A stretch of DNA of 63,372 nucleotides, filler included, from Reclinomonas americana ATCC 50394 (GCA_048213135.1; 15 parts of 15 records of this genome joined end to end with filler, not necessarily neighbours in it); one strand, 5' to 3'. Shown: positions 1 to 60,929, numbered from the whole stretch's first letter. Numbers and translations are program-made. The notes: generated from the letters alone by a model not told the origin.

Positions 1-3000
1 CTGATGACGGAGATTTCGGAGAAGAGCATTGTCGTGCAAGAGAAGCAGGACGTGGCTGCGCAAAAGGAGGCCGAGCTCAGCGAGGAGAGCAAGGAGATTG
101 CCGAAGTCAAGGCCGAGGCCGAAGCCGATTTGGCCATGGCCGAGCCGGTGCTGCAGATGGCCGCGGATGCGCTGAAGAACATTAATCGACAGGATCTTGT
201 CGAAATTCGTGCCTTTAACAACCCGCCTCTGGAAGTGCAATGTTGCGTCGGCGAGTGCTGTTTCCTCCCATTCTTTCACCCCCCAGCTCACATGTTATCT
301 GCGTGTGTGTCTTCTCGAGCGCAGCTGTCGCCGAAATGGTCGTGCACCTGTTTGGCAACCAGTACGAGCCCAACTGGAAGGGCGCCAAGGGTATGATGGC
401 CAACCCGAACTTCCTCTCGTCGCTGCTCGACTTCGACAAGGACACGCTGTCGCAACGCAAGATCAACAACGTGAAGAGCGTGTTGAATCGCGGCGCCGAT
501 CTCAGTCTCGAACGTGTGCGCGACGTGTCGCAAGCCGCCTCCGGTCTGCTCGTGTGGGTCAATGCTATGATTCAGTACTGGGATGTGTACAAGACGGTGC
601 GTGTGTGTCTGTGTCACCGCCTCGCTTGTGATGTCATCCGTGGCAGTCGCTCACTCCGTATTACTATGTGTGTTTGAGTAGGTCGAGCCGAAGAAGAAGA
701 AGGGTGAGATGCTCACGGTTGTTGGTGTTGTATCGTCACACGCCTTTTTGTCGCTCACTTGTCGCTGCGTGTAGTGATGGAGGCCGAGCGACGACAGCAA
801 CTGAACCAGCGCACGCTGAATCAGCTGCGTGCGGAAATCACGCAACTCAACAGCACGCGTGCGGAGCTGGAGACCAAGTTCGACGTCGGTTCGCGTGAGA
901 AGAGCGAACTGGAGTCCGAGGCCAACACCATGCAGCGACGTGTCACTGCCGCCACCACGCTCATTTCCGGTTTGGCGTCGGAGAAGGAGCGCTGGAGCAA
1001 GGATCTGGAGAAGCTGCATGCGTCGATGAACCGTTTGATCGGCGACTGCTTGCTCTCGGCCGGCTTCCTCTCCTACCTCGGCGCCTTCACGTCGGACTTC
1101 CGCAGTCGCCTGCTGCTGGAGACGTGGCATCCGGATCTGATGCAACGCACCATCCCGGTGTCGCAGACCTACAACTTGCGAGAGCAGCTCACCGACGACG
1201 TCGAAGTGAGCCAGTGGGCGTCGCAGGGCCTGCCGTCCGACGACCTGTCGGTGCAGAATGGCATCCTCACCACTCGGTGCAGTCGCTTCCCGCTGTGCAT
1301 TGATCCGCAACAGCAGGCGTTGGCGTGGATCAAGGAGAAGGAGGGCCGCGAGCTGCATGTGTGCACCTTCAACGACAGCGACTTCCCCAAGAAGCTCGAG
1401 ATTGCCATCATGATGGGTCAGGCGTTCCTGTTTGAGAACGTGGACGAGGAGTTGGATCCGCTGATTGACCCGGTGCTGGAGAAGAACATTGTCATCAAGG
1501 GCGGCCAGAAGACCATCAAGCTGGCCGACAAGGAGGTGCCGTGGGACGACGAGTTCCGCCTGTATCTCTGCACCAAGATCTCGAACCCGAACTACGCCCC
1601 CGAAGTCTTCGGCAAGACCATGATTATCAACTACACGGTCACGGAGGATGGCCTGGAGGACCAGTTGCTGAATGTGGTGGTCGGCTTTGAGGAGGCCGAA
1701 CTGGAGCAGAAGCGCTACCAGCTTGTCAAGGAGATGAGCGCGAACCGCACGTTGCTGAAGAAGTTGCGTTGTGCTTTCCCCCCNNNNNNNNNNNNNNNNN
1801 NNNNNNNNNNNNNNNNNNNNNNNNNNNTTAATTAATTAANNNNNNNNNNNNNNNNNNNNNNNNNNNNNNNNNNNNNNNNNNNNGTACTCTATCTCGAGAG
1901 AGAGTAACATGAAACTCACCGCGTGCGTGTGTGTATGCAGGCTCGAGGACACCTTGCTCCACTTGCTGAGCACGTCGACGGGCAACATTCTCGATAACGA
2001 CGAGCTGATTTCGACGCTGGAGGACACGAAGCGGCAGGCTGGTGACATTGCGCAGCAGCTGGCCGCCGCCGAGGTGACACGAGACAAGATCGAGGTTTGT
2101 GGACTGCAGTGCCACTCTTGACTTTGCAGTGGTAACAACGCTCATTTGCCCTTTCTCCCACACAGAAAGCGTGTGATGCCTACCGACCGGCGGCTCGTCG
2201 CGGCATGATCATCTTCTTCGTGATGGCCTCGTTGTCGCAAATCAACTCGATGTACGAGTACTCGCTTTCGTCGTACCTGTCTGATGTGTTCAAGATGGCC
2301 CTCTCCAAGCGTGAGCCAAGGTGAGTTCGCGGCACGTACCTGAGCGCTCTGCTCCTTTTTGGTGCTGACCTGTCGTGCTCTCGTTTGCAGTTTGAGTGTG
2401 GACACCAAGCTCGACAACATCATCACGCTGCTGACGTCGCTGGCCTACGACTACATTTGCATGGGTATCTTTGAGAAGGTGCGACGACGATGAAGTCTTA
2501 ACGAGTAACTGAGGAGTTGTCTCATCCCCTTGTTTGTTTTCACAACCACACAGCACAAGGACATGTTTGCCTTCCAGCTTGCGCTGCGGTGAGTGGGCGT
2601 TTCGTCTTCATTGAAATAGTTTTTGTACTAATCTCTCCTGTTGTTGATGGCAACAGCATTCTCGAGGGTGCTGGCAACCTGAATCGTCGTGAGCTCGACT
2701 TCTTCCTGAAGGGCAACTTGGCACTGACGAAGAGCGAGCGCAAGAAGCCGGCAGAGTGGATTCCGAACCAAGGCTGGGAGGATCTGATTCAACTGCAGGC
2801 GGTGCGTGGTTGTTGTTGTTCCTCGAGACCGCAATCGTCGGCAAGAGATTCACATGCTGCTTTTTCTTGGGGGGGGGACGCAGGTGGTGCCGGTGTGCGA
2901 GCACTTGGCTGATCAGGTGACGCAAAACGAACCGCAGTGGAAGTCATGGTTTGATTTGGAGAACCCCGAAGGTGTTTCGTTCCCCATGGTATGTGAAGCG

Positions 3001-58100: not shown

Positions 58101-60929
58101 AGGGAGAGGGAGAGCGAGAGCGAGAGGGAGAGCGAGAAGGAGAGCGAGAAGGAGAGCGAGAGGGAGAGCGAGAAGAAAAGCGAGAGGGAGAGCGAGAAGA
58201 AAAGCGAGAAGAAAAGCGAGAAGAAAAGCGAGAAGAAAAGCGAGAAGAAAGCGAGAAGGAGAGAGAGAGCAGGATTGAAGCAAGAGAAGGAGGATGGAAC
58301 AGAGCAGGAGAGGAATCAAGTTACAAAGCATCTGAGACGAGAAAAAGCACCAAGAAACGCAATCCGAAAGAGGAGCGACAAGAAACAACGCAGAAAACGA
58401 GACGCAACGATGCTCTGGCGGGTGCGTCTGATCCAGTGCGATCGGACCATTCGTGTCCATGGCGTCGCGCACCAGCTCCTGGGCCATTGTCTCGCAGTTG
58501 CGTTGTTGCAAGTCATCTGCTCGCCAACCACGTGAGATTACTTGCCACACAACAGCGGTCAATCGCACAAGTAACGCAACTCAGCGCCTGAGTCGTAAAC
58601 TCCACGCTCTCCACCATCAGCTCCGACGAGCCGCTCCACAGACGCATCTCAATGCGGTACTCGCGCCCAGGCAGCAGCTTGGATATCCTGCACAGGCCGT
58701 CCAACAGCGGCGCATGCGTCTTACCCACCACGCAAGTCACCTGGCCCGTCATCACCACGCGCAACTCGGCCTCGCCGAGACGAGCGAGTGCCCACGGAGC
58801 GTGACGCGACATGCACTCGAATGGGCGTGTATCCCACGTCACCGAGGCCTCGAACGGCAGCGCATCCTGCAGGCGGAGAGACAGCGCGGACGTGGGATGC
58901 ACGTGGTGCTGCAGTACGCCCTTGGGGATGGCCGGCGGGGAGATGAAGGTCCACGGACCGGAGACCCATCTGAACAGCAGCTAGAGTGAGAATGGGACAT
59001 AAAATGAGCGTGCTGAGTGTGGAATCGCAACTCTGCAGGTCCGCCATTGGCGCCACCGCATGCCTCGAGTCGCACACGGTGAGTGCCAGCCTCCTCGCAC
59101 GAGAGCACAATGCCGAGTTGTGTGCCTTGTGCGTTGAGCTTGATGAATTCGTCGGCGGCGATGACTGTGGAAGAGGGAAAGGAAGAGGAAAAGGGTGAGT
59201 ATGTGAGGGAAAGGTGATTGAGGGAAAGGTGATTGATGAAGGGTGAGTGAGAGCAACAGAGAGCAACAAGAGGAACAGAGAGAAACAGAGAGAGAGACAG
59301 AGAGAAACAGAGAGAAACAGAGACGACAGAGAGGAACAGAGAGGAACAGAGAGGAACCGAGAGAAACAGAGACGACAGAGAGGAACAGAGAGGAACAGAG
59401 AGGAACAGTGAGGAACAGAAAGGAACAGAGAGAAACAGAGAGAAACAGAGAGAAACAGAGAGAAACAGAGAGAAACAGAGAGAAACAGAAAGGAATAGAG
59501 GGAAACAAAGAGGGAAACAGAGAGAAACGGAGAGAAACAGAGGAAAACAAAGAGAAACAGAGAGCAACAGAGAGAAACAGAGAGCAACACAAAATCAGAA
59601 TGCACCAGTGAGAAGTGTTAAGTGCTACTGCCTGTGCTCTCTCCATTTCCTTCCCCTCCCTTTCCCTTTCCCTTCCCCTCCCTTCTCCTTCCCCAACACG
59701 CAACATTTCTTCGTCACATTGTCGGGATACAAGTGCGCCACTCGCAGCACGACATCACGGTTGGCGGCGGAGCGCTCCCAGTTCCACTGCAAGCACACAA
59801 GCTTGCCAGTGTTTTCCGTTTGCGGAACGCGCTCCAGCAGAGGAATCGCCGACGTGTCCATGGAATCTGAAGCAAGCACAATGCAATGTCAGTGCTTGCT
59901 GAGAGAGAGATCACATCATGAGAAGCACTCACCAGACGCCGTCACGGGGTAAATCAAAATTGTCTTGTCGCGACTGGCCGAGGCAAAGCGTGTGCCATCA
60001 TTGTTCCAGCACACGGCGAACACCTTGTCGCGATGGTCGGTCAGCGTTGACAAGCAGCTGCCGTCGCTCACTTGCCACAAGCGGACCTGTTCGAGAGGAG
60101 ATGGGTGAGCATGAATCCCTCTCCCTTTCTCCTTACCCCTCATCCCCCTTCCCCCTCGTCCCCTTTCCCCTTTTCGCCCTTTCCCCTTTTCGCCCTTTCC
60201 CCTTTACGCACCGAGTTATCATGGGAGGCCGACAACAGATACTTGCCATTGGGCGACCAGCTGACATCGCACACACGACCCGTGTGACCCTCGCAGACCA
60301 CCTCACAGCGCGCCGACTCCACGTCAAAAATGCGAATGCGGTTATCGCCCTTCCACACACTGGTGGCCACGTGGCGACCATCGGGGCTCCAGCAGCAGCC
60401 GAAAACGCCCGTGCCTGGCGGGTGCTTCAGCACACGCACACACTCCCGCGTCGTCACGTCCCAAATGCGCGCCGTGCCGTCGTCGCTGGCCGTCACCAGC
60501 AGATTCAGCACCTCACCCTCCGGCGCACCGCCCTCAATGTACAGCTCCGGGCAAAAGCTAATGCGGTTCACGTCGCCCTCGTGTCCGTCCAGCGAGCCGA
60601 CGGCACGACCGAGCGAGTGCAGGCTGACCGAGCGGCCGGCACCCGTCGCCACCAAGTCACCGCGCGGTGACACGGCCAGGCCCCACACAGGTGAGCCGGT
60701 AAGGCCAGGTGGGGCGTCAATGCGCATAATGCGCTCGTGTGGCGTCTTCAGCACGTCCCACGCCTGCATGGTGCCGTCGTCGACACCGGTGAAGAGCAGG
60801 CGTCCTCGCAGGGCCACCGAGGTGACCGAGCGGGCTTGTGTGCTGGCCGAGTTGTTCAGTTGGACCACGGCCTCGCAGACGTCGTGGCCGGCCGGGCCTG
60901 AGAGGTCCCACAGGCGGACGGTGCCATCC
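55120..60929 (-). CDS. WD40-repeat protein followed by fibronectin type III-like domain(s) and a long helical/coiled-coil C-terminus; probably one gene spanning two gaps, 5' end missing
   Basis: WD40 repeats: GHEGDVNRISF..TASDDGTARIWD, GHTGRVCDVSWSPNGKYLLSASHDNSVRLWQ, DHRDKVFAVCW..SASRDKT. In-frame splicing continues to the FN3-like ISKLLPGREYRIEMR and to heptad-rich exons. Stop at 55120. Continuity across the gaps is inferred. Confidence 0.65.
56408..56742. repeat. Intronic 10-bp minisatellite CTTCTCGT(CT/GT/CA) with variant blocks
   Basis: More than 30 tandem decamers, changing from TCTC to TGTC to TCAC variants along the array. Confidence 0.92.
59255..59590. repeat. Intronic 10-bp minisatellite (AGAGAAACAG/AGAGGAACAG)n
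   Basis: Tandem decamers inside an intron of the WD40 gene. Confidence 0.9.

Follow-up and report, generated by a model that had tools for sequence, protein, structure and literature searches.

The stretch of DNA considered here (the window) comprises 63,372 nucleotides (nt) of Reclinomonas americana ATCC 50394 (GCA_048213135.1). It is a chain of contigs from a fragmented 108-Mb assembly of this intron-dense flagellated eukaryote, in which both haplotypes are mostly present. Genes in the window include an axonemal dynein heavy chain gene, a leucine-rich repeat (LRR) gene, a large minus-strand gene, a tandem array encoding ankyrin-kinase proteins, and a WD40 gene. Two kinds of 5′ splice site (donor) are distinguished in these genes. 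Class 1 donors carry G at +5, while class 2 donors carry T at +3 and G at +6, and most often read GTTGCG. Class 2 and a variant U1 small nuclear RNA (snRNA) that may read it are the subjects of this analysis.

GTTGCG donors in the window

A first-pass annotation of the window had listed about 25 donors reading GTTGCG, and all 25 listed sites are present at their coordinates and on their strands (Table 1). The word GTTGCGT occurs 33 times in the window versus 8.6 ± 3.0 in 100 shuffles, none of which reaches 33, making it about four times commoner than in shuffled sequence. A gene model free of any donor motif starts introns at 19 of the 25 sites, missing 41600, 45977, 54300, 5374, 10252, and 36830. 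A donor-weighted (informed) model recovers 24, although this figure is circular in that its weights include the donor itself. The informed model opens 25 of its 116 introns in the window with GTTGCG, including one at 4966 (minus strand) that was absent from the earlier list. Site 36830 is an intron start in neither model, and its listing as a donor is not sustained. Sites 4462–5557 lie within a weakly scored gene (score 26–30). Protein homology anchors sites 242 and 1763, and the dynein spacing LLKK^LEDTLL claimed for the latter holds (here and below, ^ marks the cut), since a GC donor at +4 would insert one residue relative to the profile.

Other parts of the annotation need narrowing. The sites were said to lie in unrelated genes, but four of them (41600, 45977, 50108, and 54300) represent one intron in four tandem ankyrin-kinase paralogues, leaving 22 independent sites. 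The reading frame was said to be restored with the next AG, which is too loose a description for 13830, 59704, and probably 22625, where the introns are long (~1005, 540, and 816 nt, respectively). Two points had been missed altogether: an exon-final G precedes only one of the 25 donors, at 17463, and position +7 is mostly T. The four paralogues themselves occupy positions 37250–55054 of the plus strand and combine ankyrin, coiled-coil, and receptor-like/Pelle-type kinase segments.

Table 1. Class-2 introns, donors, and related words in the window.
Feature	Position	Strand	Basis
Intron t^GTTGCGT...CAG, axonemal dynein heavy chain gene	242..324	+	Motif-blind homology alignment (margin 3.4 bits); Pfam AAA_9, MT
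Intron a^GTTGCGT, dynein LLKK^LEDTLL, crosses assembly gap	1763..1940	+	Motif-blind homology alignment
Intron, LRR gene	6434..6522	+	Donor-blind and informed models
Intron, LRR gene	6792..6854	+	Donor-blind and informed models
Intron, LRR gene (LDLS N^NKIT)	7614..7673	+	Both models; LRR_6 in next exon
Last intron, ankyrin-kinase copy 1 (LGVQ^CMSLFYDRP)	41600..41672	+	Informed model only; kinase-like exon
Last intron, ankyrin-kinase paralogue 2	45977..46045	+	Informed model
Last intron, ankyrin-kinase paralogue 3	50108..50193	+	Donor-blind and informed models
Donor, ankyrin-kinase paralogue 4, intron end not fixed	54300..54306	+	Sequence reading, informed model
Intron, weakly scored gene	4390..4462	-	Donor-blind and informed models
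Extra GTTGCGT donor, not in earlier list	4960..4966	-	Informed model, word count
Intron, weakly scored gene	5303..5374	-	Informed model only
Intron, weakly scored gene	5486..5557	-	Donor-blind and informed models
Intron, large minus-strand gene (~9.8–26.8 kb)	9992..10059	-	Donor-blind and informed models
Intron	10193..10252	-	Informed model only
Intron	12387..12470	-	Donor-blind and informed models
Intron, ~1 kb	12826..13830	-	Donor-blind and informed models
Intron (GTTGCGA)	14296..14359	-	Donor-blind and informed models
Intron	17214..17289	-	Donor-blind and informed models
Intron, sole listed one after exon G	17390..17463	-	Sequence reading, both models
Donor, intron end uncertain	22619..22625	-	Donor-blind and informed models
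GTTGCGT word, unsupported as donor	36824..36830	-	Absent from both models
Donor, WD40 gene, intron crosses gap	58402..58408	-	Both models; WD40 match
Donor, WD40 gene	58574..58580	-	Donor-blind and informed models
Intron, WD40 gene	58970..59031	-	Donor-blind and informed models
Intron, 540 nt, WD40 gene	59165..59704	-	Donor-blind and informed models

Homology placement and motif statistics of class-2 donors

Dynein introns were placed with a profile built from 124 dynein heavy-chain homologues and a spliced aligner in which every GT or GC donor carried equal cost. Eight dynein genes gave 306 aligned introns. Filters demanding ≥5 bits to either side of the junction, ≥3 bits above the best alternative donor, and no gap close by retained 172, and 170 remained after removal of two with N. 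Among the 167 GT introns passing these filters, 134 fell in class 1, 25 in class 2 (23 GTTGCG and two GTTTCG), and eight in neither. All 25 homology-placed class-2 donors have C at +5 as well as G at +6. An exon-final G precedes 127 of the 134 class-1 donors versus one of the 25 class-2 donors (p = 4e-21).

It could be argued that the sites are mispredicted and that the true donor is the GC at +4, a possibility the annotation itself had raised. This GC keeps the frame, and the aligner picked it in three of 42 places among all 306 introns, one of which passes the filters, versus 39 for GTTGCG. At the DNA level, however, GT wins over GC in both dynein and Prp8 homology. Three of the nine distinct Prp8 introns begin with GTTGCG, all in near-invariant sequence (WTHQ^RHDG, KLW N^LNN, and GNLT^TKPI), where a GC donor would put an extra residue into invariant motifs. 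One Prp8 stretch (L186:1061–1325) even contains consecutive micro-exons of 13 and 22 nt with a GTTGCG intron after each. Best protein matches are at 57–68% identity for the dyneins and 87% for Prp8. On these alignments, the spliceosome's own core gene is itself dependent on predicted class-2 introns. Prp8 (L192:1–2018, minus strand; L186:3–650, plus strand; contigs C4241 and C729 of assembly G000) also carries at least three intein-like insertions, which end in HN or GN before conserved sequence and show a weak match to Pfam Hom_end.

When both intron ends were slid by +1, the fit was worse in 13 cases, the same in 12, and better in none. A cut after the G, giving TT...AGN introns, was thus ruled out by 13 to 0, though the introns had been preselected as GT/GC-AG. 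Permitting AT donors and AC acceptors in three dynein genes produced no AT donors. These comparisons support a cut that stays directly before GT, and it is nearly certain from the alignments that GTTGCG donors are real.

The frequency of class 2 was estimated with a donor-blind gene model that has no donor weights and was trained on the dyneins and contig C14. It recovers 136 of 154 homology introns, most of these genes being in its training set. Applied to C14, the window, and five additional regions, of which two are partly haplotypes of one another, the model predicted 1518 introns in well-scored genes, and 841 of them survived filtering by length and acceptor. No donor hexamer is commoner among the 841 than GTTGCG, with 170 occurrences, or 20% versus 1.0% of all GTNNNN words in C14; the excess demanded by the annotation is thus seen, as far as DNA can tell. 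Class 2 as a whole numbers 213 and class 1 462, with 166 donors fitting neither class and probably including errors. In two further regions, GTTGCG was found at 47 of 255 and 61 of 255 donors. Class 2 thus appears to account for 14–25% of predicted introns.

The second donor class proposed by the annotation is therefore present in both the homology and the donor-blind counts, with the form H^GTT(G/T)CG(T). GTCGCG, GTAGCG, and GTGGCG together occur only eight times. C at +5 is found in 195 of 213 class-2 donors versus 199 of 462 class-1 donors at the equivalent +4 (p = 1e-36). Of the 348 donors preceded by a base other than G, 195 belong to class 2 and 70 to class 1. Within class 2, A is frequent at -1 (104/213 vs 17%) and at -2 (69/213 vs 21%, p = 2e-4), while C at -2 is not enriched. 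Among non-T bases, +7 of class 2 resembles +6 of class 1 (p = 0.49). Haplotype comparison indicates constraint, with positions +3 to +6 differing at five of 288 sites versus 9.6% inside introns (p = 6e-8).

In length, branch point, and acceptor, class-2 introns are like those of class 1. A U2-type branch point, CT(A/C/G)A(C/T), is found in 167 of 195 class-2 introns at a median of 20 nt from the 3′ end and in 301 of 392 class-1 introns at a median of 19 nt, counts that are raised in both classes because the gene model scores this motif. The U12-type branch point TCCTTRAC occurs in none of the 195, which rules out class 2 as transformed U12 introns. Nor does the donor GTT(G/T)CGT match the RTATCCTT of U12-type introns. 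Class 2 thus has the GT-AG ends and branch point of U2-type introns but lacks the G+5 that pairs with C4 of U1 and with the U6 ACAGA box in the normal register. Phase-2 introns are more frequent in class 2 (56/195 vs 49/392), plausibly because A-ending exons are commoner there.

A mixture of two organisms with different U1 snRNAs in one assembly would offer another way of explaining away the sites, and foreign DNA is in fact present. Contig C1 of G000 (L153 and L198) is 2.3 Mb long, has 47% GC in the stretch read, carries a 1521-nt small-subunit ribosomal RNA (rRNA), and is probably a bacterial genome. A eukaryotic 18S rRNA was not found, and the sole small-subunit rRNA that was found looks foreign. 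However, T+3 is identical in all 72 haplotype pairs of class-2 donors, and both classes alternate within single genes. Moreover, contigs bearing both U1 genes and both U2 genes described below share the motif frequencies of the window, and the two U1 genes have stem-loop 4 and the 3′ box in common. Misprediction, whether through the downstream GC or through a mixed assembly, is accordingly considered very improbable.

Two U1 genes and their predicted pairing with the donor classes

Two kinds of U1 gene occur in the genome. The canonical gene (L003) has the 5′ arm AUACUUACCUG. The variant gene, represented by a haplotype pair (L001 and L002), has the arm AUACGUAACUU, which lacks the canonical ACUUAC and differs by three substitutions (U5G, C8A, and G11U) with no insertion or deletion. 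This arm is the complement of AA^GUUACGUAU and can pair with AA^GUU(A/G)CGU one base out of register, in which case the cut lies opposite the junction of U1 positions 10 and 9 and not, as usual, of 9 and 8. A variant U1 gene, one of the options raised by the annotation, is thus present, and its arm is complementary to GTTGCG in a +1 register.

The U1 covariance model RF00003 aligns to the variant over model positions 1–166 (E = 6e-14), with a score of 64 bits that lies below the cut-off of 69.5. The 70K loop, U1A loop, and Sm site are present (GAUCAAGCAG, AAUGCAC, and AAUUUUUU, in the order listed), and an 18-nt segment of stem-loop 4 is identical in the two genes. Upstream of the variant lie CCACAA at -65 and TGCAC at -20, with the 3′ box GAAGACGAA at +18. 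These motifs recur at other snRNA genes, CCACAA at eight of nine other readable ones. The CCACAA word lies at -63 to -71 in Sm-class and U6-class genes alike (L001, L005, L007, L009, L184, L204, L206, and L242), often with TGCAC near -20. The two haplotype copies of the variant are identical over 154 nt, and the 585 nt upstream of them differ by 16 substitutions and seven gaps. No third U1 paralogue was found among 19 two-mismatch matches to stem-loop 4, a number at control level. Among 20 pattern matches to the variant arm in metagenomes, motif inspection found none combining the U1 loops with an Sm site.

Calculated pairing divides the donors largely along class lines. Duplex energy with class 2 is -8.9 kcal/mol for the variant and -1.4 kcal/mol for the canonical arm, and with class 1 it is -4.2 and -7.2 kcal/mol, respectively. 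The variant is the better partner for 24 of 25 homology-placed and 207 of 213 predicted class-2 donors, and the canonical arm for 120 of 134 and 382 of 462 class-1 donors. Shifting the register by one base raises the number of class-2 pairs from 2.0 to 7.2 for the variant arm and from 3.0 to 5.0 for the canonical arm. Among 4455 possible three-substitution arms, the variant ranks 23rd for class-2 pairing.

The simplest competing view is that canonical U1 reads class 2 in a +1 shifted or bulged register, with the variant being a bystander or late helper. Shifted and bulged registers have been proven in human cells (PMC4856993), where ~1.5% of donors use non-canonical registers (PMC11162779), and most human variant U1s are poorly expressed, with few affecting splicing (PMC10870369). 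The gain in Watson-Crick pairs of canonical U1 upon shifting is in line with such a mechanism. In addition, the presence or absence of one T moves the donor of one haplotype pair between classes (c^GTTCGT vs c^GTTTCGT), and at one dynein intron position a class-1 donor in one paralogue is matched by a class-2 donor in another, so that conversion between classes by T insertion is possible. Only six positions are shared among 207 dynein introns, one of them with this class switch, which is too few for dating.

If class 2 were simply a shifted copy of class 1, however, it should also hold GTTGAG and GTTGTG, given that class 1 has G-A in 85, G-T in 43, and G-C in 128 donors at +3/+4. Only five and six such donors exist, versus 170 GTTGCG. 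The annotation's description of GTTGCG as GTGCG with one extra T is thus correct in part, class 2 being much narrower than a shifted class-1 copy. Furthermore, canonical U1 has a mean duplex energy of only -1.4 to -1.7 kcal/mol with class 2, and the variant gene looks intact and conserved. The near-fixation of C+5 is predicted only by the variant arm, through its G5. As far as pairing can indicate, a shifted canonical U1, which would call for C at -2, does not agree with the fixed C+5 and the A at -2, whereas the variant does. Reading by canonical U1 is therefore regarded as quite unlikely, and it is very probable from the pairing that the variant U1 reads GTTGCG donors.

U6, the minor spliceosome, and a model for class-2 splicing

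Single loci were found for Prp8, U1-70K, Luc7, SNRNP27, and a METTL16-family gene. Two different U2 genes (L007 vs L008/L009) have a common branch-site arm, different stems, and the snRNA promoter word. A single U4 was found, with a perfect ACGT tetranucleotide repeat (L184:2326–2416) ~700 nt downstream of it, and a single U5, which scores weakly but has a canonical loop. As a further side observation, a predicted gene of >2300 aa with 39 introns (L191:1–10000, plus strand), maybe two genes merged by the model, has what we take to be the look of an IP3/ryanodine-receptor-type channel followed by a phosphoglycerate-mutase-like tail.

U6 is represented by three identical canonical copies; seven two-mismatch matches lack U6 context. 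The variant U6 suggested by the annotation did not turn up in family, DNA, or two-mismatch pattern searches. In principle, the variant U1 could act together with another U6 paralogue that escaped detection and has a box matching GUUGCG directly. The assembly is fragmented and partly masked, the RNA-family searches scored only ~45 candidates, and a DNA search with the variant U1 missed even canonical U1, so that such searches are insensitive. On the other hand, all three kinds of search returned only the three canonical copies, and the assembly of most of both haplotypes gives any gene two chances to appear. We consider such a paralogue decidedly unlikely.

The reading we favour, with a probability of about 0.6, is that the variant U1 paralogue reads class 2, together with ordinary U2 and with ordinary U6 shifted by one base. 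The variant would recognise H^GTT(G/T)CG(T), and canonical U1 would serve the ordinary G^GTNNG(T). Through the three substitutions, the +1-shifted pairing, which is weak for normal U1, would become an uninterrupted helix: U10 with A-1, C9 with G+1, A8 with U+2, A7 with U+3, U6 in a wobble with G+4, G5 with C+5, C4 with G+6, and A3 with U+7. Ordinary U2 would deal with the 3′ end, since class 2 has the branch points of class 1. The ACAGAGA box of U6 would in turn form its pairs one base deeper in the intron (C with G+6 and A with U+7), one intron base being looped out. If the variant U1 is the reader, this ordinary, shifted U6 probably completes the reaction. Registers of U6 and U6atac relative to the donor come from aligning the AGAGA and AGC motifs and from known structure, and the shifted U6 step is the least supported part of the model. 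From sequence we infer U1 expression, the division of labour between the two U1s, and the U6 register. The likely gain would be that introns can sit at exon ends without G.

Several observations weigh against this reading. The homology margin of GT over GC at +4 is usually the gap penalty alone (6 bits). Twenty-two other three-substitution arms would pair with class 2 as well as the variant or better, and 76 of 462 class-1 donors pair better with the variant, meaning that the two U1s may overlap in their targets. Neither U1 gene reaches the Rfam cut-off of 69.5 bits (the canonical gene scores 63.7), the minimum-energy fold of the variant gave no cloverleaf, and the promoter and 3′ motifs were defined after inspecting the sequences. 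The perfect Watson-Crick partner of the variant, GTTACG, is nearly absent (2/213), A being far rarer at +4 of class 2 than at +3 of class 1 (2/213 vs 50/462, p = 6e-7). U at +4 (28/213) mismatches the variant arm, and A at +8, which could pair with it, is not enriched (10%). The scarcity of GTTACG and the occurrence of U at +4 imply that the motif is not determined by the variant U1 alone. In class 1, too, the perfect partner is rare, with A+3 accompanied by A+4 in six of 462 donors; one guess is that an overly stable helix hinders U1 release. No second locus for U1-70K, Luc7, or Prp8 was found. U1C was not found either, apart from one weak match unlike U1C, which does not imply its absence. 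Finally, U6 in its normal register makes no pair with GUUGCG, and no precedent was found for a +1 U6 register, the published case, which has experimental backing, being -1 (PMC11162779).

The last difficulty would be avoided if U6 were replaced by U6atac. An ordinary minor splicing system does exist separately in the genome, judging from its RNAs and introns. U11, U12, and a CC-variant U6atac lie at L206:1501–1632, L210/L211:1501–1654, and L242/L243:1501–1631. The U11 arm AAAAAGG is canonical, as is the GUAAGGA of a weak U12 (25.6–26.5 bits). Of 44 matches to the pattern of U12-type introns, 31 have the form ATATCCTT...TCCTTRAC...AC versus seven in the control, haplotype duplicates included. 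The one U6atac locus (a haplotype pair at 37.8 and 34.9 bits, cut-off 33) reads CACCG-AGAGA versus AAAGG-AGAGA in the Rfam consensus. No second U6atac copy was found. U4atac was not found in the search, which does not imply its absence.

Under a hybrid scheme, the variant U1 and U2 (one of the two U2s) would define the intron, and U6atac, with its CCG-AGAGA in the normal register and without any U6 shift, would catalyse splicing. By inspection, the U6atac box forms two G-C pairs with GUUGCG (at C+5 and G+6), and its GGUC and AGC could pair with GAUC and GCU of U2. An A of U6atac opposite +4 would account for GTTTCG. The sole U6atac also fits the genome's own ATATCCTT introns poorly, and the existence of two different U2 genes would suit a separate pathway. 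However, the CC box also occurs elsewhere: U6atac with '[GU]CCGA' is on record from oomycetes, Acanthamoeba, Physarum, moss, cnidarians, and others, and was called unexplained (PMC2396436). The expected signature at +7 to +9 is also lacking, as G at +7 is depleted among non-T bases (13/61 vs 38%, p = 0.008), U at +8 is slightly depleted (48/213 vs 29%, p = 0.03), and G at +9 is neutral. A lineage-specific recoding of U6atac was dropped on these two grounds. In addition, this U6atac already has its usual job, given a canonical U11 and a canonical U12 whose GAUC matches it. The failure to find U4atac likewise counts against the hybrid. Such a third pathway, serving about a quarter of all introns, is unlikely; if true, a single natural spliceosome would combine major and minor components, and a target would exist for the CC variant. 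Ordinary, shifted or bulged U6 is favoured because the CC variant is widespread, minor introns are present, and enrichment at +7 to +9 is absent.

The closest parallel to the favoured reading by variant U1 is found in human +1 shifted or bulged 5′ splice sites, which likewise have the consensus plus one base after GT, U1 one base further in, and a cut at GU (Roca and Krainer 2009, as cited in PMC4856993 and PMC11162779). They too pair better with U1 when shifted by one base. Human sites are rare and use ordinary U1 with mismatches, whereas here 14–25% of introns would be read by a U1 paralogue with a built-in shift. Co-evolved U1 arms are known from Entamoeba (ACAAAC with GUUUGU) and Mastigamoeba (ACGUAC with GUGCG) (bioRxiv 10.1101/2022.06.08.495308). 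The variant resembles both in being altered to match an atypical donor, and its U5G facing C is the Mastigamoeba change. In those organisms, however, a single U1 changed along with the genome-wide consensus in the normal register, while here the canonical U1 is kept and a second U1 would read a separate, shifted class. The same source mentions standard and modified U1 in Physarum only as a matter to be presented separately. Like the minor spliceosome, including its expanded form in Physarum (10.1101/2020.10.12.336362), class 2 would have its own 5′ reader, needs no exon-end G, and has more phase-2 introns; unlike it, class 2 has U2-type branch points and GT-AG ends, and its reader would be a U1 rather than a U11. 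Two major donor classes distinguished by U5 versus U6 pairing (Parker et al. 2022, PMC9803359; PMC11732430) are likewise split by the exon-end signal, but share one U1 and one register, the weak-exon class keeping G+5 where class 2 has C+5 and G+6. Human variant U1s (PMC10870369) are also altered paralogues, but amount to <0.001% of U1 and have no matching intron class. No published account of a GTTGCG class was found in a literature search that reached few subscription papers and no bioRxiv supplements.

Taken at face value, the sequences make it likely that the cell uses two different readers for intron starts, and class 2 would amount to the human shifted register served by a reader of its own. 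If so, two U1 RNAs would divide ordinary introns between them, an arrangement whose artificial counterpart is seen in engineered exon-specific U1 RNAs. How the 5′ cut is fixed with U1 out of register, and whether U6 follows, is an open question for which few human sites have been studied. Extrapolating from the ~1 Mb read, R. americana would offer thousands of natural introns in a shifted register, and because the variant U1 could be blocked separately, the hand-over from U1 to U6 would be directly testable. For annotation there is a practical warning, in that gene predictions relying on standard donor models would get one intron in five wrong in this lineage.

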